DNA from: Elusimicrobiota bacterium
Lineage (GTDB): Bacteria > CAYTYR01 > UBA6262 > DAOVJB01
Direction of reading: 5' to 3'
DNA length: 32,288 nucleotides
Assembly (NCBI GenBank): GCA_030673425.1
Contig: DAOVJB010000001.1
Coordinates: 1-32,288 of the forward strand
Shown here: positions 3,310 through 21,195 of the stretch, in pieces
Position numbering within the stretch: the stretch's first letter is position 1
Layout: each line of letters begins with the position of its first letter
Notes under the pieces: generated by a model
Database searches by the model: none
What the model was told of the DNA's origin: nothing
The model's input: only the letters and a program-made list of their open reading frames with translations
Position numbers and translations under genes: made by a program

Positions 3310-3909
3310 ATGAAATTGTTACGAACTATAGGAATTACAGCGGTTTTATTATTTTTATCAGTAAACTTGAATGCGGAAACATCTAAACTTAAACAGGAGG
3401 CTTTTTCTATGCCAGAAGATCCGGTGATAATCATGAAAACAAACGAGGGAGCAATAGAAATAAAACTTTTCCCCAAAGTTGCTCCAAAAGCTTGTGAAAA
3501 CTTTATCCGTCTTGCCCAGAAAGGTTATTATGACGGAATAATTTTTCACAGGGTTATTAAAAATTTTATGATTCAGGGTGGAGATCCTACAGGCACTGGC
3601 AGGGGGGGAACAAGTATATGGGGGGAACCTTTTGAGGATGAGGTATCAAAGGATGTTAAATTTGACAAACCCGGGTTGCTTGCTATGGCTAATGCAGGGC
3701 CTGGTACTAACGGCAGCCAGTTTTTTATAACCACAATCAAAACCCCGTGGCTCAATATGCGACACACAATATTTGGTGAAGTCATTAAAGGTTATGAGAT
3801 AGTACAGAAAATTGAAAATGTAAAAAAGGGACCCGGTGATAGACCGATAGAAGAACAGAAAATACTCAAGATGTACTTAAAGAAATCAGAAAAGAAAAAA
3901 GGCAAATGA
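3310..3909 (+). CDS. Peptidyl-prolyl cis-trans isomerase, cyclophilin type, with signal peptide (periplasmic)
   Basis: Signal peptide MKLLRTIGITAVLLFLSVNLNA|E. Cyclophilin motifs FHRVIKNFMIQGGDPTGTG, GLLAMANAGPGTNGSQFFIT, HTIFGEV. Confidence 0.93.
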   Translation: MKLLRTIGITAVLLFLSVNLNAETSKLKQEAFSMPEDPVIIMKTNEGAIEIKLFPKVAPKACENFIRLAQKGYYDGIIFHRVIKNFMIQGGDPTGTGRGGTSIWGEPFEDEVSKDVKFDKPGLLAMANAGPGTNGSQFFITTIKTPWLNMRHTIFGEVIKGYEIVQKIENVKKGPGDRPIEEQKILKMYLKKSEKKKGK

Positions 3910-3924
3910 TAAGGAGATTTTAAG

Positions 3925-5298
3925 ATGCGAAAAATAATAGCAGAGCGAAGAGGATTAAAACGGATAAAAATAGATTTACCCATTAGGTATTGTTATCATG
4001 ATATTATGGGGCCAGCAGCTTCTAGAGAAGCAACTGCACTCGATATAAGCTCAGGTGGGATTTCATTTAAGGTAGGGGAGACTTTTTCACTTTCTACCAT
4101 ATTGAAAGTTGAGGTAGACCTTCCTGCATTTCCAAAGCCGGTTGAGATTTTGGTAAAAGTCGTAAGAGTGGAACAAACTGATAAAGAAAATAATTTTATT
4201 GTAGGAACTACTATTACACGTATTAACGAGCAAGACAAACAAAAGATAACTATCTATTTTGAACAAGCTGACATTCTTGAATTATTTCAGGCAACAGTAG
4301 ATGCCCTAGCCTCTGATTTGCATTTATCTGTAAACCATCCTCCCATATTGCGTGTCGGAGGAGAGTTGCAGCCTATACGTAATAAAGGAGTATATAATTC
4401 AATGGATTTAAAACGCATTATTTATAGTATTATGACTGAAGAGCAAATAAAGTTTTTTGAAGAAAACCTGGAATTAGATTTCTCCTATTCTGTTTCTCCT
4501 ATTATTCGTTTTCGTGTTAATGTGCATTTACAAAGAGGTAATGTAGAAGCAGCTTTTAGAAGAATTGAGGCACGAATTAAAACTATACAGGAGCTCGGCT
4601 TACCAACGGTAGTGGCTGACTTGGCAAGAAAAAGAAGAGGAATAGTCCTTTTGACAGGAGCTACCGGCAGTGGGAAAACCACGACCATGACAGCTATGGT
4701 TGACTTAATTAATTCTGAAAGGGAATGTTTAATTATAACTCTGGAGGACCCAATTGAGTATGTTCACGTATATAAGAAGAGTATAATTAAGCAAAGAGAG
4801 ATTGGTATGGATACTAAATCATTTGCTACTGCACTAAGGCATGCGATGCGTCAGGATCCGGACGTTATTGTAGTAGGAGAAATTCGTGATTTAGAAACAA
4901 TCTCTACAGCTTTAGCAGCGGCAGAAACAGGCCATCTTATTATAGCGACTTTGCCTTCCTACGATGCTGCTCAATCTATTAGCCATATTGTACATATGTT
5001 CCCTGCACAGCAACAGAGACAGATCAGATTACAACTAGCTGATACTCTACAGGGTATCGTTAACCAGGTTTTGTTACCACGAGCAGACAATCCCTTTGAA
5101 CGCGTAGTAGCTACTGAAACCTTGATTACAACGTCAGCGGTGCGTAATATTATCCGTGAACAAAGATTAGAACAATTACCTTACATTATTCAAACAGGTT
5201 CGCAGTTTGGCATGCATACTATGCAGAATTCATTAGAAAGATTACATAATAAAGGAATAATAACTAAAGAATCAATGATGAAGCGTTCCAAGAGTTAA
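3925..5298 (+). CDS. pilT: PilZ domain-fused type IV pilus twitching-motility (retraction) ATPase PilT
   Basis: aa 1-~110 form a PilZ domain with RxxxR (R9-GLK-R13) and DxSxxG (D40-ISSGG). aa ~115-457 form a full PilT: ASDLHL N-domain, Walker A GATGSGKTT, Asp box ITLEDPIEY, Walker B DPDVIVVGEIRD, His box TGHLIIATLPS, C-terminal AVRNIIRE. Confidence 0.9.
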   Translation: MRKIIAERRGLKRIKIDLPIRYCYHDIMGPAASREATALDISSGGISFKVGETFSLSTILKVEVDLPAFPKPVEILVKVVRVEQTDKENNFIVGTTITRINEQDKQKITIYFEQADILELFQATVDALASDLHLSVNHPPILRVGGELQPIRNKGVYNSMDLKRIIYSIMTEEQIKFFEENLELDFSYSVSPIIRFRVNVHLQRGNVEAAFRRIEARIKTIQELGLPTVVADLARKRRGIVLLTGATGSGKTTTMTAMVDLINSERECLIITLEDPIEYVHVYKKSIIKQREIGMDTKSFATALRHAMRQDPDVIVVGEIRDLETISTALAAAETGHLIIATLPSYDAAQSISHIVHMFPAQQQRQIRLQLADTLQGIVNQVLLPRADNPFERVVATETLITTSAVRNIIREQRLEQLPYIIQTGSQFGMHTMQNSLERLHNKGIITKESMMKRSKS

Positions 5299-5334: not shown

Positions 5335-6615
5335 ATGAAACAAAAAGATAAAAAAGTACTTTTGATAGACGATTCTATTTTTGCGCATACTGTTGTGAAG
5401 GATTTATTTGATGGGCATGAATTTGACCTGGTTGCTGCTGCAATAGACGGTGAAAAGGGGGTAGAATTATTTAAGGAAACAAAACCCGATGTTGTTCTTC
5501 TTGACATTGTTCTTCCCGGAAAGCAGGGGGATGAGATTTTAGAGGATATATTAAAGATTAACTCGGACGCCAAAATTATAATGGTCAGTTCTTTGGCTAC
5601 TGAAAACAAGATATTGAAATGCCTCAGAAAAGGAGCCAAGAACTTTGTTCCTAAGCCTTTCGAAAAGCAAGAGCTGATTAACGCAATAGAAGAAGTAACT
5701 AAAACAGGAGCGGTATCATATTCAGTGGTATCTGTATTAAAAGATGCAAACATCGGCGGTAAGTTCTTCGGTCAATATCTTCTGGCTAAAAATAAAATCA
5801 CCTCCCAAGAGTTGGAGGCTGCCCTTAAATATCAAAAAGAAAAGAATTTGACTCTTGAGACTATTTGCAAGAGGGAAGGGTTGCTTAATGAAGATGAGGC
5901 CAAGCAGGTTCATAATGTGCAGAAGGAATTTCCGGATAAGAGCTTTGCAGAAATCGTTGTAGAGAAAAACTTTTTGGACCAGGAAACATTAGAGGATGTC
6001 ATAAAGGAGCAGAAGAAAAATCAGGTTTATTTAGGTCAGGCTCTGGTGGGTGTCGGGGCAGTGTCTCAAGAAGAGATAAATCAGGAACTTAAAAATTATA
6101 AAGAAGAACAGGACAGGATTGAGGGAGAAATAGTCTATAACCTCTACAAGCTTGAGGATAAGGATGCAGTTAAAATATTTGTGAGCTTTACCGTAAATGC
6201 GATTAAGCTATTTGAGCAGATGCTCGGGATTCCTGTTAAGATGAACAGGTGTGTACCTTTAGCCGATTCATTTGAGACCAGGGAATACCTGATTGAACAG
6301 AAGGCGCACGGGGCGCTCAAGACATCTTTTCTTTTTAATTTTTCCAAAGAGATGGCCAGGTGTATATCTTCTGTTTTATTTTCAAAAGAGGTTACTAATG
6401 TAGATACCTATGGTATTGATGCATTAAAGGAGTTCCTGAATATAGTCAGCGGGAATTGTTGTTCCAAATTGAGTAATATCGGGGTGAATATCGAGATGAA
6501 AGCTCCTGAGCTATGGGTGGAAGGAACTTATCCGAAAAAAGGGAAGTTTACCTATGTTTCTCTGATCTCATCCGGGGGAGATTTTGAGATTTTGATGAAA
6601 CTGGATAAAGTATAG
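5335..6615 (+). CDS. Response regulator: REC + four MshEN/T2SSE_N-like 24-aa repeats + CheX/CheC-like C-terminal domain
   Basis: REC hallmarks: D12/D13, D57 in VVLLDIVLPG, S85/S86, K107 in PKPF. aa 144-255 carry four repeats fitting (R)LGxxLLxxGLLxxxxLxxxLxxQ in two pairs, each pair separated by 5 aa. aa ~275-426 resemble CheX (VKIFVSFTVNAIKLFEQMLG..., DALKEFLNIVSGNCCSKLSNIGVNIEMKAPE). Confidence 0.75.
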   Translation: MKQKDKKVLLIDDSIFAHTVVKDLFDGHEFDLVAAAIDGEKGVELFKETKPDVVLLDIVLPGKQGDEILEDILKINSDAKIIMVSSLATENKILKCLRKGAKNFVPKPFEKQELINAIEEVTKTGAVSYSVVSVLKDANIGGKFFGQYLLAKNKITSQELEAALKYQKEKNLTLETICKREGLLNEDEAKQVHNVQKEFPDKSFAEIVVEKNFLDQETLEDVIKEQKKNQVYLGQALVGVGAVSQEEINQELKNYKEEQDRIEGEIVYNLYKLEDKDAVKIFVSFTVNAIKLFEQMLGIPVKMNRCVPLADSFETREYLIEQKAHGALKTSFLFNFSKEMARCISSVLFSKEVTNVDTYGIDALKEFLNIVSGNCCSKLSNIGVNIEMKAPELWVEGTYPKKGKFTYVSLISSGGDFEILMKLDKV

Positions 6616-6661: not shown

Positions 6662-7156
6662 ATGGCTAATTTTTCTTTTGATGTTGTATCTGAGGTGGAC
6701 TTACAGGAAGTTGATAATGCGGTTAATCAGGCAAAAAAAGAACTGCTTCAGAGATATGATTTTAAGAACTCCAAGTGCTCCATTGATTTTAACAGAAATG
6801 AAAAAAAGATAACTTTGATCGGAGACGATGACTTTAAACTCCGTGCTGTTAAAGATGTTTTAGCCACAAAAATGGTTAAAAGGGGTGTTAAACTTAAAGC
6901 TCTCCTGTTTAGAGAACCTCAGAAAGCATTTGAAGGGTCTTTGAGGCAACTTGTTGATATATCCGTAGGTATTGATAAGGAAAAAGCTAAGGAACTGGTT
7001 AAGATTATAAAAAAACTGAGATTAAAGGTGCAGGCTAGTATAGAAGGAGAAAAATTAAGAGTTTCTAGTCCTAAAAAAGATGACCTACAAGTAGTTATTG
7101 CGCATCTAAAAAGCATTGATTTTCCGTTAGCTCTTAGTTTTCGTAATTATAGATGA
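6662..7156 (+). CDS. yajQ: YajQ family (UPF0234) nucleotide / cyclic-di-GMP-binding protein
   Basis: Characteristic N-terminus MANFSFDVVSEVDLQEVDNAVNQAKKELLQRYDFKNS and a length of 164 aa. Confidence 0.9.
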   Translation: MANFSFDVVSEVDLQEVDNAVNQAKKELLQRYDFKNSKCSIDFNRNEKKITLIGDDDFKLRAVKDVLATKMVKRGVKLKALLFREPQKAFEGSLRQLVDISVGIDKEKAKELVKIIKKLRLKVQASIEGEKLRVSSPKKDDLQVVIAHLKSIDFPLALSFRNYR

Positions 7157-17125: not shown

Positions 17126-17659
17126 ATGTTGTGTAATATCTGTCATAAAAAAGAGGCAGTAATTCATTTTACGGAAATAATAGATAACCAGATAACAAAA
17201 TTGCATCTGTGTGAGGAATGTGCCAAGACTAAAGGATTGCAGTTTCCTTTTGGAAAACCACTTTTTTCTATGGCTGATTTATTGGCAGGTTTAAGCAATT
17301 TTGATACATATTCTTTGGAACAAAAAGCCAAGGTAAAGTGTCCAAATTGTGGGGTTACATATAACGATTTCAAGAGGAACGGTAAATTGGGCTGCAGCGA
17401 ATGTTATAGTTGCTTTAAGGCTGAACTCAAGCCTATTCTTAAAAGAATCCACGGAGGAATTTCTCACCTGGGTAAAGCTCCTGTAGCCAGAGGTAAAAAA
17501 ACTACACGCAGGAAGAAAAAAACAACAGGCCCTCCATCTGTTGACATCCAGATAAATCAACTGCATACAGAATTGCAAGAAGCAGTTAAAAATGAAGAAT
17601 ATGAAAAAGCAGCTGTGATTAGAGACAAAATAAAAGAATTAAAAAGGAGTAGTGTATGA
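17126..17659 (+). CDS. mcsA: McsA-like protein (four CxxC zinc-finger motifs + UVR domain), activator of protein arginine kinase
   Basis: CNIC...CEEC and CPNC...CSEC motifs. C-terminal UVR motif LQEAVKNEEYEKAAVIRDKIKELK. 4-nt overlap with mcsB. Confidence 0.85.
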   Translation: MLCNICHKKEAVIHFTEIIDNQITKLHLCEECAKTKGLQFPFGKPLFSMADLLAGLSNFDTYSLEQKAKVKCPNCGVTYNDFKRNGKLGCSECYSCFKAELKPILKRIHGGISHLGKAPVARGKKTTRRKKKTTGPPSVDIQINQLHTELQEAVKNEEYEKAAVIRDKIKELKRSSV

Positions 17660-18702
17660 AGCTGAAATATATGCTTGAGGAAAAAAGCGGATGGCTTACA
17701 GGGGAAGGTCCTTCCCTTGAGGTTGTAATATCAAGCAGGATAAGATTAGCCAGGAATCTTTCAGAATATCTTTTTCCGAACAAGTCCCAGGAAGACCAAC
17801 AGAAACAAGTTTTTAAGTTAATAACTGAGGCTGTAAAAAAGAGCAATTATTTTAAGAATGCGGCTATTTTAAGGTTAAATGATCTGGAAAAGGTGGACAG
17901 GCAACTTTTAATGGAAAGGCACCTTGTGAGTTTTGAGCATGCCCGTGGGAAAGGTGAAAGGGGGATAATTATAGGTGATAAGGAAATAATAAGCATCATG
18001 ATCAATGAGGAAGACCACCTGCGCATACAGGCATTACAGCCTGGTTTCCAGCTGTCAGAGGTATGGGATTTTATCACCCGGATTGACGATGAACTGTCAA
18101 AATATCTTGATTATGCTTTTAGTGAGGAATGGGGTTATCTCACATCATGTCCCACTAATACAGGAACAGGGATACGTGCATCAGTCTTAATACATCTTCC
18201 GGGATTAGTTATTACGGGTGAGATAAATAAAGTATTAGAGGCTTTGTCAAAATTAGGACTGGCGGCACGGGGACTTTACGGGGAAGGGACAAGGGTTATG
18301 GGAGATTTCTTCCAGATTTCTAACCAGGTTACATTATGTCAGACCGAAGAAAATATTATAGATAATATAGAACGTGTGGTAAAGCAGATTATAGGTTATG
18401 AATTAAAGGCACGGGAGATGTTGAAAAAGGATACCATGGAAGAAAACTATGATAGAGTTTACCGTGCTTACGGAATCTTGAAAAATGCCCGTACTATTAG
18501 TTTTGTAGAAGCAATGGAATTGTTATCTAAGGTAAGATTAGGAGTAGATATAGGAATTGATTTGGGTGTCGATATAGGTATTCTTAATGAGCTTATGATT
18601 TTTACTCAGCCGGCACACCTGCAGGAATCCTCAGGAAAGATATTAGACCCTCACGAAAGGGATATACTGAGGGCAAAGTTTATCAGGGAAAAATTGAGTT
18701 AA
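17656..18702 (+). CDS. mcsB: Protein arginine kinase McsB (ATP:guanido phosphotransferase)
   Basis: ISSRIRLARN, NEEDHLRIQ, GYLTSCPTNTGTGIRASVLIHLPG, LYGEG are phosphagen-kinase-type catalytic motifs. Confidence 0.92.
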   Translation: MKLKYMLEEKSGWLTGEGPSLEVVISSRIRLARNLSEYLFPNKSQEDQQKQVFKLITEAVKKSNYFKNAAILRLNDLEKVDRQLLMERHLVSFEHARGKGERGIIIGDKEIISIMINEEDHLRIQALQPGFQLSEVWDFITRIDDELSKYLDYAFSEEWGYLTSCPTNTGTGIRASVLIHLPGLVITGEINKVLEALSKLGLAARGLYGEGTRVMGDFFQISNQVTLCQTEENIIDNIERVVKQIIGYELKAREMLKKDTMEENYDRVYRAYGILKNARTISFVEAMELLSKVRLGVDIGIDLGVDIGILNELMIFTQPAHLQESSGKILDPHERDILRAKFIREKLS

Positions 18703-18729
18703 AGAAAGTTATATAGGAGGAGATTTAAG

Positions 18730-21195
18730 ATGTTTAATCGTTTTACTGAGAGGGCACAAAAGGTTATTCTCTTGGCCCAGGAAGAGGCTAAGAAATTAAA
18801 TCATGATTATTTAGGTACGGAACACCTGCTTTTAGGATTGGTTGCTTTGGGTGAAGGTGTTGCTGCAGTTGCTTTGAATAATTTAGGTATAGATTTAAGA
18901 AAATTACGCCAGGAAGTGGAAAAAGCTATCGGGATAGGAGAGAACATATTGCTTCTCGGAGAAATCCCGTTTACTCCCCGGGCCAAAAAAGTGTTGGAAC
19001 TATCGGTAGAGGAAGCCCAGGATATGGGACATAATTATGTAGGTACAGAGCATATCCTGTTAGGGTTAATAAGGGAAGGGGAGGGAGTAGCAGCTAGGGT
19101 TTTGAGTTCATTAGGGATAAATTTAGAAAAACTTAAAGCAGAAATTGTAAATATATTAGGTGAAATCGGAGCTGCCCCTCAGGATGAGGGTCCGTCTAAA
19201 CCCAGGCATAGAACGAAGTCAAATAGTCCTACACTCGATTCTTTCGGTAGGGATTTGACCGTTCTTGCTCAGGAGTCCAGGCTTGATCCTGTAATTGGAC
19301 GTGAATCAGAGATTGAGAGAGTCATTCAGATTCTTTGCAGGAGAACAAAGAATAATCCTGCCTTAATCGGTGAGCCCGGTGTGGGAAAAACAGCTATTGT
19401 GGAAGGATTGGCACAGAAGATTGCTAGTAATAACGTACCTGAGATTTTGTTAAATAAAAGAGTGTTGACTCTTGATTTAGCCGGTGTAGTAGCAGGAACG
19501 AAATACAGAGGAGAATTTGAACAGCGCTTGAAACTTATCGTTGAAGAGATTCGTCGTGCGAGAAACAGTATAATTCTTTTTATTGATGAACTACATACCG
19601 TGGTTGGAGCCGGAGCGGCTGAAGGAGCCATTGATGCATCTAATATGTTAAAACCTGCCCTTGCACGTGGAGAACTGCAGTGTATAGGAGCTACAACATT
19701 AAATGAGTATAAAAAATATATTGAACATGATGCGGCTTTAGAGAGGAGATTTCAATCGGTTATGGTGGACCCTGCTACTGTTGAGGAAACAAAGGCGATA
19801 TTAAAAGGCCTCCGGGATAAGTATGAGGCCCACCATAGGGTCAGAATTACTGATAAAGCCATTGATGCTGCCGCAGAGTTGTCCAACAGATATATTGCTG
19901 ACAGATTCCTTCCGGATAAGGCTATTGATTGTATTGATGAGGCAGGAGCCCGGATAAGGTTAAAAAGTACCATGTTGCCTCCTGATATCAAGAATTTAGA
20001 GAATGAGATTGAACAGACAGACGAAGAAAAGAAAGCAGCAACGGCTACGCAGGAATTTGAAAAGGCTGCTAAACTCAGGGATAAAGAAAAAGAGTTAAAA
20101 ACAAAATTAGAGAAAATAAAAGATGAGTGGGAGCAGAAAAAAACTCAGAAAGAACCTGTTGTTACGGAGGAAGATATTGCTTATGTTGTTTCTAAGTGGA
20201 CAGGAGTTCCTGTTGAAAAACTTACAGAAAAAGAATCGGATAAATTACTCAGGATGGAGGATTACCTGCATAAAAGAGTAATCGGGCAGGATGCGGCCAT
20301 AAAGGTCGTTTCTCAGGCCGTGCGTCGTTCACGTACGGGATTAAAAGATCCGAAAAGGCCTATTGGTTCATTTATATTTTTGGGACCTACCGGCGTGGGT
20401 AAGACAGAGTTAGCCAGGACTCTGGCAGAGTTCTTATTCGGTAATGAAGAAGCTATGATTCGTATTGATATGAGTGAATATATGGAGAAATTTGCGGTTT
20501 CACGTTTAATTGGTGCTCCTCCGGGATATGTTGGTTATGAAGAAGGCGGGCAATTAACAGAACAGGTAAGGCGCAGGCCATACTCCGTGATACTTTTAGA
20601 TGAAATTGAAAAAGCACATTCTGATGTATTTAATATTCTGCTTCAGGTTATGGATGACGGGCAGCTTAGTGATAACCTTGGTCATACTGTAAGTTTCAGG
20701 AATACCGTTATAATCATGACCGCTAATATTGGTGCAAGGGAGATAAAAAATGGCAGGGCACTGGGCTTTCAGGCCAGCGAAGACACAGATAAAACCTATA
20801 GTCAAATGAAAGACATTGTTCTTGAGCAAATGAAAAAAACATTTAATCCTGAATTTCTTAATCGTATTGATGAAATAGTTGTTTTTCATGCTTTGTCTAA
20901 AGATGATATGAGAAAAATTGTTGATTTGATGTTAAATAATGTCATTACAAGACTCAAAGAACAAAATGTTGTTTTAGATGTTTCTAAACTCGCACGAGAG
21001 TTCCTTTTAGAGAAGGGATATGACCCTGCTTTTGGTGCACGGCCACTCAGAAGAGCTATCCAGAAATATTTAGAAGACGCTCTTGCTTCTGAAATGTTAT
21101 CCAAGCAATTTTCAAAAGGAAAAGTTATTTATATTGAATTAGCAGAAGATAAGGAGAAGCTCGTTTTTAAGGAAAAAGTCGCACAGCAAAATTAA
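18730..21195 (+). CDS. clpC: ATP-dependent Clp protease ATP-binding subunit ClpC
   Basis: Two Clp_N repeats. AAA-1 Walker A GEPGVGKT and Walker B FIDELH. Middle UVR motif [18 protein letters not shown]-2 GPTGVGKTE and [10 protein letters not shown]-terminal [10 protein letters not shown]. Confidence 0.95.

Follow-up and report, generated by a model that had tools for sequence, protein, structure and literature searches.

A PilZ-PilT fusion protein with a His-box proline from an Elusimicrobiota bacterium: a candidate c-di-GMP-responsive PilT paralogue

The first 32,288 nucleotides (nt) of contig DAOVJB010000001.1 of an Elusimicrobiota bacterium (GenBank assembly GCA_030673425.1), hereafter called the window, harbor a gene that joins an N-terminal PilZ domain to a complete PilT, the retraction ATPase of type IV pili (Table 1). 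The N-terminal ~113 residues are a canonical PilZ domain, predicted from sequence and modelling to be of the type that binds cyclic di-GMP (c-di-GMP). In the ATPase, the second histidine of the His box is replaced by a proline, Pro-344, and comparison of homologues indicates that this is a conserved trait of a clade and not an error. On the strength of its sequence and of analogy with characterized pilus ATPases, we lean towards reading the protein as a PilT paralogue that responds to c-di-GMP and turns over ATP at a retuned or lower rate. Such a paralogue might retract pili under regulation or, alternatively, be a regulator that works like a brake. Judging from the homologues, it is also one member of a large and taxonomically broad PilZ-PilT family, and not a singular fusion.

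The PilZ assignment was supported by profile, motif and fold. Pfam PF07238 matched residues 30-109 with 33.8 bits (gathering cut-off 22.5; E 4.5e-8). The two c-di-GMP motifs in the refined definitions of Galperin and Chou, RxxxR and [D/N]hSxxG, are both intact, as R9xxxR13 and D40-I-S-S-G-G45, with I41 as the hydrophobic residue of the latter, so that a PilZ domain carrying both motifs stands where the sequence-only reading of this DNA had placed it. Residues R9, R13 and S42 are each conserved in at least 90% of the fusion family. A further arginine, R8, directly precedes RxxxR, a configuration that we take to be tied to dimeric c-di-GMP binding (PP4397 versus VCA0042). The AlphaFold2 (AF2) model of residues 1-118, which is a predicted and not a solved structure, has a predicted local distance difference test score (pLDDT) of 86.8. 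It contains the PilZ layout of a six-stranded beta-barrel (strands 14-24, 34-41, 46-50, 59-64, 73-84 and 91-100) and a C-terminal alpha-helix (102-117). In the PDB, every one of the best 48 Foldseek matches of this model is a PilZ-domain structure, mostly solved with c-di-GMP, and the engineered VCA0042 L135R structure is among the matches. When a 36-sequence profile of the N-terminal part of the fusion family was compared with the PDB, MotI/YpfA came first (E 3.4e-8), followed by PilZ, BcsA, Alg44 and PA0012; of these, MotI, BcsA and Alg44 are PilZ proteins that bind c-di-GMP. Sequence profile and predicted fold agree on MotI as the solved structure closest to the N-terminal domain. Pfam PF05157, the MshEN/T2SSE_N domain, gave no match in the protein at E up to 0.1.

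A complete PilT follows the PilZ domain, as had been claimed from the sequence. NCBIfam TIGR01420 (PilT/PilU) covers residues 117-456 with 418.3 bits, against a cut-off of 319.1, and Pfam T2SSE (PF00437) matches residues 194-393 with 133.8 bits; the scan for PilZ plus T2SSE that the sequence-only reading had proposed as a check thus found both. The closest PDB sequences are Geobacter PilT4, Aquifex PilT, Thermus PilT2 and Pseudomonas aeruginosa PilT (PaPilT), with E values of 1e-86 to 1e-98. The PilT core shares 48% identity and a template modelling (TM) score of 0.93 with Geobacter PilT4, the main retraction ATPase of that organism. The full-length AF2 model (pLDDT 87.7) superimposes on PilT4 (6ojy/6ojx) with TMt 0.91-0.94 and a root-mean-square deviation (rmsd) of 1.3-1.7 A. 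Walker A, the Asp box, the Walker B glutamate, the first histidine and AVRNIIRE are all intact, and within the PilT N-terminal domain R195 and R212 are invariant in the homologue alignment. The AIRNLIRE-type motif separates PilT from PilU. Identities as PilU, PilB, GspE or DotB were rejected on curated cut-offs; the DotB, TraJ, GspE, PilB and ComGA models all fall far below their own cut-offs (TIGR02538 for PilB, 113 bits against 676), with DotB and TraJ as weaker matches. In the full-length model the PilZ helix (102-113) is separated by one residue from the first PilT helix (115-126), with pLDDT 77-89 at the junction. With the C-terminal helix of PilZ running almost straight into the PilT helix, the model suggests tight coupling of sensor and motor.

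The His box is where the protein departs from canonical PilT. HMMER alignments place 'aetghliiatlPs' of the window protein under 'aetghlcfatlHt' of Geobacter PilT4 and 'aetghlvfgtlHt' of Aquifex PilT. Moreover, a constant offset of 115 converts K136, E204, H222 and H229 of PaPilT into K251, E319, H337 and P344. Alignment with solved PilTs and the offset to PaPilT therefore agree that Pro-344 stands where other PilTs have the second His-box histidine, as proposed in the sequence-only reading. By profile and fold the protein belongs to the PilT family, but with only the first histidine present it lacks the pair characteristic of PilT/PilU proteins, and it is filed here as a PilT variant and not as a canonical PilT. 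The same proline is found on an independent contig that is near-identical (P0001/L001), in a homologue with 89% identity (P0002) and in ~20 homologues of 47-54% identity, being fixed among homologues down to ~47% identity. This recurrence in an independent contig and in diverged homologues rules out an assembly error. The H229A variant of PaPilT still folds; twitching is lost, phage sensitivity is kept and in vitro ATPase activity is decreased. By analogy, Pro-344 should lower or retune hydrolysis rather than abolish nucleotide binding. Of the 21 proline variants in our sample, 17, including the window protein, retain K251, E274, E278, E319 and H337; such strict conservation of the other catalytic residues speaks for continued selection on ATP hydrolysis.

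A second position changes together with the His box. Position 215 differs systematically between the proline and histidine groups, and after R212 the canonical 'FRxIP' becomes 'FRRIE' (residues 211-215, nt 4555-4569). An acidic residue 215 accompanies the loss of His344 in 24 sequences and its presence in 1, compared with 15 and 37, respectively, for a non-acidic residue. The co-occurrence extends across several subclades (Fisher p about 1e-8, uncorrected for phylogeny). E/D215 lies beside the arginine finger, and on the brake reading discussed below its covariation with the loss of His344 would be the mark of an active site rebuilt between subunits.

The wider family was followed with several searches. 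An initial homology search recovered ~28 full-length PilZ-PilT proteins of 450-472 amino acids (aa) with 47-54% identity, together with P0002 and the 99%-identical copy P0001. A profile of PilZ plus the PilT N-terminal domain, in an exhaustive search of 1.84 billion representatives, gave ~50 clusters (50% identity) with a match spanning both domains. In the genomes of GTDB species, fusions occur mostly in Candidatus Omnitrophota, and other metagenome-assembled genomes (MAGs) that carry one are labelled Zixibacteria, Terriglobales, Ignavibacteria, Patescibacteria group and Gammaproteobacteria. A single-protein scan of GTDB species representatives returned no close relative of the window protein, and the profile scan of GTDB species genomes returned diverged fusions and no member of its own clade. 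A word-indexed search with only the N-terminal 140 aa found nothing and missed even the 99%-identical protein, which reflects a limit of the tool and not the biology. Public databases already annotate the fusions with PF07238 and PF00437, under the name 'PilT/PilU family type 4a pilus ATPase'. Our literature searches, with subscription-only papers beyond reach, found no published account of a PilZ-PilT fusion.

Variation within the family was tallied in an alignment of 66 sampled fusions. Residue 344 is histidine in 30, proline in 21 and another residue (S, N, Q, E, K, G, C, V or T) in the remaining 15. RxxxR is present in 63, [D/N]xSxxG in 45 and both motifs in 42. Only 8 proline variants keep both motifs, and the window protein is among these. 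Eleven sequences without the PilZ part were also compared: eight keep the histidine and three have proline (P0088, P0215 and one short fragment). In a rough neighbour-joining tree the window protein groups with P0002, beside a proline-only clade (P0051-P0081). Both lie near canonical single-domain PilTs, and further proline or serine lineages are found elsewhere in the tree. Loss of the second histidine is thus common across the PilZ-PilT family as sampled, and it opens an alternative role, as regulator or brake, to that of main retraction motor. The top non-fusion matches (P0004-P0101) are tandem PilT-PilT proteins of ~715-775 aa from MAGs that include Lentisphaerota and Myxococcota-like ones. 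Every one of the 91 tandem PilTs in the sample has at least one canonical His box. A crude regular expression counted a single canonical box per protein in 89 of the 91, which suggests that one ATPase half is degenerate.

Table 1. Positions of the PilZ-PilT fusion gene, its domains and motifs, and two neighbouring loci in the window
Feature	Position (nt)	Strand	Details and source
PilZ-PilT fusion gene	3925..5298	+	457 aa plus stop; ATG at 3925, stop at 5296-5298; open reading frame (ORF) list and translation
Shine-Dalgarno-like AAGGAG	3911..3916	+	AGGAG at 3912-3916, 8 nt before the ATG; read from the sequence
PilZ domain, residues ~8-113	3946..4263	+	Pfam PF07238, family profile, AF2 model, Foldseek
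RxxxR motif R9-G-L-K-R13	3949..3963	+	R8 directly before; read from the translation
[D/N]hSxxG motif D40-I41-S42-S43-G44-G45	4042..4059	+	Read from the translation
PilT N-terminal (PAS-like) domain, residues ~115-218	4267..4578	+	TIGR01420 match, AF2 secondary structure
PilT C-terminal RecA-like ATPase domain, residues ~219-457	4579..5295	+	PF00437, Foldseek
Walker A GATGSGKTT, residues 245-253	4657..4683	+	K251; sequence
Asp box TLEDPIEY, residues 272-279	4738..4761	+	E274 and E278; sequence
Walker B DPDVIVVGE, residues 311-319	4855..4881	+	E319 catalytic, equivalent to PaPilT E204; sequence
His box TGHLIIATLPS, residues 335-345	4927..4959	+	First histidine H337 kept; second is Pro-344
CCT codon of Pro-344	4954..4956	+	Position of the gamma-phosphate-coordinating histidine, PaPilT H229
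AVRNIIRE ('AIRNLIRE'-type), residues 405-412	5137..5160	+	Sequence
Downstream neighbour, REC, helical middle and CheX/CheC-like	5335..6615	+	426 aa; Pfam REC 79.6, CheX 30.8 and CheC 27.8 bits
Minor-pilin-like operon, three genes	9299-13333	-	742, 176 and 402 aa; prepilin-type or PilX-like N termini

The start codon chosen for the fusion gene is well supported, because a ribosome-binding sequence stands 8 nt upstream; only with that start does the protein include the RxxxR motif. Homologues start at the equivalent place. A script reproduced all residues and coordinates that had been read from the sequence (R9, R13, D40, S42, G45, H337, P344 and CCT at 4954-4956), and the earlier description of the ORF was correct throughout. 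The points on which that description could have failed computationally likewise came out in its favor, with PilZ above threshold and Pro-344 inside the His box.

The surrounding window is a housekeeping stretch with a G+C content of ~37%. It encodes SpoVG, QPRTase, BirA, cyclophilin, the fusion, a REC-CheX/CheC response regulator, YajQ/DUF520 and a DinG-like helicase, and further LysRS, a MacB-like ABC exporter (FtsX-type permease plus ATPase), McsA/McsB-ClpC, TamB, S6-SSB-L9, DnaB, Alr and MlaE. The cyclophilin gene stops at 3909, 15 nt before the fusion gene. The REC-CheX gene follows the fusion after 36 nt, with its own AGGAG, and no terminator-like site lies between them on the + strand. 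Co-transcription is plausible given these short gaps and the lack of such a site; promoter and terminator scans performed at chance level and do not decide the operon structure. The adjacency of the fusion and REC-CheX genes was not seen at the loci of diverged homologues that we examined. No conserved neighbourhood or partner of the fusion was found among these loci, whose contexts vary by clade.

On the minus strand, 4 kb downstream of the PilZ-PilT gene, lies what looks, from its sequence, like a minor-pilin or giant-pseudopilin operon. The N termini of the 742- and 176-aa products (KKGFTLIEIAF... and KKGMNYIELLV...) resemble prepilin-type signal and N-methylation sequences, and that of the 402-aa product (EEGFALILVFF...) is hydrophobic and PilX-like. 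The 742-aa protein has a borderline N_methyl match and CarboxypepD_reg domains. Genes for pilB, pilC and pilM-Q were not found within the 32 kb window.

Other features of this and related loci were observed. The helical middle region of the REC-CheX protein (~170 aa) contains repeats such as FGQYLLAKNKITSQELEAALKYQ, reminiscent of the T2SSE_N/DUF4388-type pattern 'LGxxLLxxGxIxxxxLxxAL'. A test of this region as an MshEN/T2SSE_N-like c-di-GMP module gave no significant Pfam match and only a sub-threshold one to DUF4388. A YajQ/DUF520-family gene (6662-7156, + strand, 200 bits) lies two genes downstream of the fusion. Proteins of the YajQ family reportedly bind c-di-GMP in Xanthomonas, and two putative c-di-GMP receptors, PilZ-PilT and YajQ, may therefore share one gene string. 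In the sister clade, at P0054/P0055 (L002 9392-10009 and L006 7110-7730), a gene of ~205 aa, translationally coupled to the fusion, starts within ~3 nt of the fusion stop and is followed by maf. Its product is conserved, has no Pfam match and may be a clade-specific partner; considered as a counterpart of the REC-CheX neighbour, it proved to be unrelated. Around a His-retaining PilZ-PilT in a PVC-group MAG (L003 12896-14792), a stand-alone PilZ and a GAF-HD (HD-GYP-like) protein are encoded ~3.5 kb downstream, which hints at a local c-di-GMP module. The window also contains an operon at 17126-21195 (+ strand) with a McsA-like protein (UVR motif), a McsB-like arginine kinase (ATP:guanido phosphotransferase) and clpC. 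The McsA/McsB/ClpC operon for protein-arginine-phosphorylation quality control is best known from Firmicutes; here it stands in an Elusimicrobiota-like genome. Among named relatives, those closest to the window ClpC (~70% identity) come from Elusimicrobiota MAGs, and matches of 83-85% identity come from unclassified 'bacterium' MAGs.

Several known systems share part of this architecture. Geobacter PilT4 (6ojx, 6ojy, 5zfq), Aquifex PilT (2ewv) and PaPilT (3jvu) have the same two-domain fold, 43-49% identity over the PilT core, and in common with the window protein Walker A, the Asp box, the Walker B glutamate, the first histidine and an AIRNLIRE-type motif. Unlike them, the window protein has an extra N-terminal PilZ of ~113 residues, a proline at the H229 position and FRRIE in place of FRxIP. 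PaPilT H229A lacks the histidine at the same position, but it is an engineered alanine in a canonical PilT, whereas the window protein has a naturally fixed proline and, along with it, changes at covarying positions (E215 and others). The extension ATPases MshE and PilB are likewise hexameric and PilT-like, with a c-di-GMP module N-terminal to an N2-like domain, and the regulation of MshEN-bearing pilus ATPases by c-di-GMP is established (Roelofs 2015; Wang 2016, both as cited elsewhere). By analogy the window protein may work in a similar way. However, its sensor is a PilZ beta-barrel and not an MshEN helical domain, and its ATPase is of the PilT (retraction) and not of the PilB/MshE (extension) subfamily; as both differ, it is not a member of the MshEN group.

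PilZ domains have also been coupled to motility by other arrangements. In YcgR and MotI/DgrA, which brake or disengage the flagellar motor when they bind c-di-GMP, a PilZ of the canonical c-di-GMP-binding type works on a motility motor directly. Each is a protein of its own that docks on the flagellar stator or rotor, whereas the PilZ described here is fused in cis to a pilus ATPase. The PilZ-FimX-PilB system of Xanthomonas and Pseudomonas likewise uses a PilZ fold to couple c-di-GMP signalling to a type IV pilus ATPase. There, FimX serves as the sensor and a PilZ without the binding motifs acts on the extension ATPase PilB in trans, while the window PilZ has intact motifs and stands in cis on PilT. 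In Myxococcus xanthus, PilZ-DnaK chaperones also fuse PilZ to an ATPase (PMC10313047), but this ATPase is of the Hsp70 family and the process is unrelated.

On the reading we favor, the protein would be a PilT-family hexameric motor ATPase with an N-terminal PilZ sensor. C-di-GMP would bind at the putative site R8-R9xxxR13/D40xS42xxG45, in the N-terminal loop and the barrel, and PilZ would thereby move with respect to the N-terminal domain of PilT. Such a shift may alter either the packing of this domain on the neighbouring ATPase domain or the engagement of the hexamer with the pilus platform. In PilT-like hexamers, the packing of the N-terminal domain on the ATPase domain of the neighbour sets the open and closed interfaces, so a movement of PilZ would be expected to alter ATP turnover, hexamer conformation or platform docking, and the activity of the PilT paralogue would then track c-di-GMP levels. 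Pro-344 would remove the histidine that coordinates the gamma-phosphate, with reduced coordination and a slower or retuned turnover as the probable effect. The outcome would be a slow, regulated motor or modulator, and the protein would not be the main engine of high-force retraction. The functional proposal made from the sequence, that c-di-GMP may control retraction directly and that ATPase coupling may be altered, fits this anatomy and the H229A phenotypes. Two elements of pilus context are supportive: the minor-pilin-like operon downstream, and one homologue (L004) encoded near pilB-pilT-pilC.

Some observations weigh against this interpretation. Many remote fusions also lack Walker B or the first histidine, which suggests a drift to non-catalytic roles. 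In the sister clade P0051-P0081 the second PilZ motif is degenerate (E-I-S-x-E-N), so c-di-GMP binding is apparently not universal in the family. Proline is unlike alanine, and the analogy with H229A may under- or overstate the effect. Finally, the fusion gene is an orphan among housekeeping genes in the window and, with one exception, at the other homologue loci that we examined, and its link to a particular pilus machine is drawn from homology only. The exception is L004, where the fusion lies 4 kb from a pilB(MshEN)-pilT-pilC cluster, indicating that it can coexist with a canonical PilT as an extra paralogue.

The protein might instead be a catalytically crippled PilT paralogue acting as a c-di-GMP-dependent regulator, a reading that we regard as tentative and on the whole unlikely. 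At high c-di-GMP, such a brake or clutch would occupy the PilC/PilM platform, or co-assemble with canonical PilT or PilB, and block or slow retraction or extension, as a pilus counterpart of YcgR or MotI on the flagellar motor. The gamma-phosphate-coordinating histidine is gone, and PaPilT H229A is unable to power twitching. The histidine has been lost from 36 of the 66 PilZ fusions, against a canonical box in every tandem PilT sampled and a histidine in 8 of the 11 short sequences. The additional losses in remote fusions, the arrangement at L004 and the fact that MotI, the closest solved PilZ relative by profile and predicted fold, is a flagellar clutch all point the same way. However, the window protein and 16 other proline variants keep every other catalytic residue, H229A retains partial function and ATPase activity, and a canonical pilT is not demonstrable for the source genome from a 32 kb window. 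Extended to the family, this proposal would make the PilZ-PilTs without His344 dedicated c-di-GMP-gated pilus brakes, with low turnover, that dock on PilC/PilM or join PilT hexamers and stall retraction; we hold that extension to be equally doubtful.

It is more improbable still that PilZ is a c-di-GMP-independent interaction or localisation module that tethers the PilT paralogue to a partner, like the PilZ of Xanthomonas and Pseudomonas. Non-binding PilZ domains that regulate type IV pili by protein contacts are documented, the [D/N]hSxxG motif of clade P0051-P0081 is degenerate, and the family profile also matches non-binding 'type IV fimbriae assembly protein' PilZ structures. Yet in the window protein both motifs are intact, together with I41 and the extra R8, most of the sampled fusions (42 of 66) retain the two motifs, and the top structural matches are nucleotide-bound PilZ domains. 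We give very little credence to a role of the ATPase in another type IV filament-like or secretion machine, or in a process without pili, for which 'retraction' would be a misnomer. The position outside pil operons would suit it, and PilT-like ATPases power other systems, DotB and TraJ being weaker matches here; but canonical pilT genes, too, frequently stand apart from pil operons, the protein clears the PilT/PilU cut-off by a wide margin while its scores for DotB, TraJ, GspE and PilB are far below their cut-offs, AVRNIIRE is present and prepilin-like genes are nearby. A chimeric assembly, or a decaying pilT with a random change of histidine to proline, is effectively ruled out: only the unusual residue speaks for it, the ORF runs without interruption behind a strong ribosome-binding site, the same architecture and proline recur in many independent assemblies with 47-99% identity, and both domains have high-confidence fold predictions.

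The PilZ-PilT fusion with a His-box proline is a new, uncharacterized variant and moderately surprising to specialists. It addresses a question that is still open, namely how type IV pili switch between extension and retraction. To our knowledge, second-messenger input has been documented only on the extension side, on MshE/PilB through MshEN and on PilB through FimX-PilZ. A widespread natural fusion of a canonical PilZ receptor for c-di-GMP to PilT is evidence of the 'Rosetta-stone' kind that a direct link from c-di-GMP to PilT is possible as well, and it offers a soluble, single-polypeptide system in which second-messenger control of retraction can be tested. The histidine-to-proline change, fixed amid a conserved catalytic core, is an evolutionary experiment on the tuning of ATP turnover or on the change of motors into regulators. 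If the non-His proteins were indeed brakes, a second messenger would have a direct effect on the retraction half of the type IV pilus cycle, comparable to that of YcgR and MotI on flagella, in a family concentrated in uncultivated lineages, Omnitrophota and Elusimicrobiota-like bacteria.

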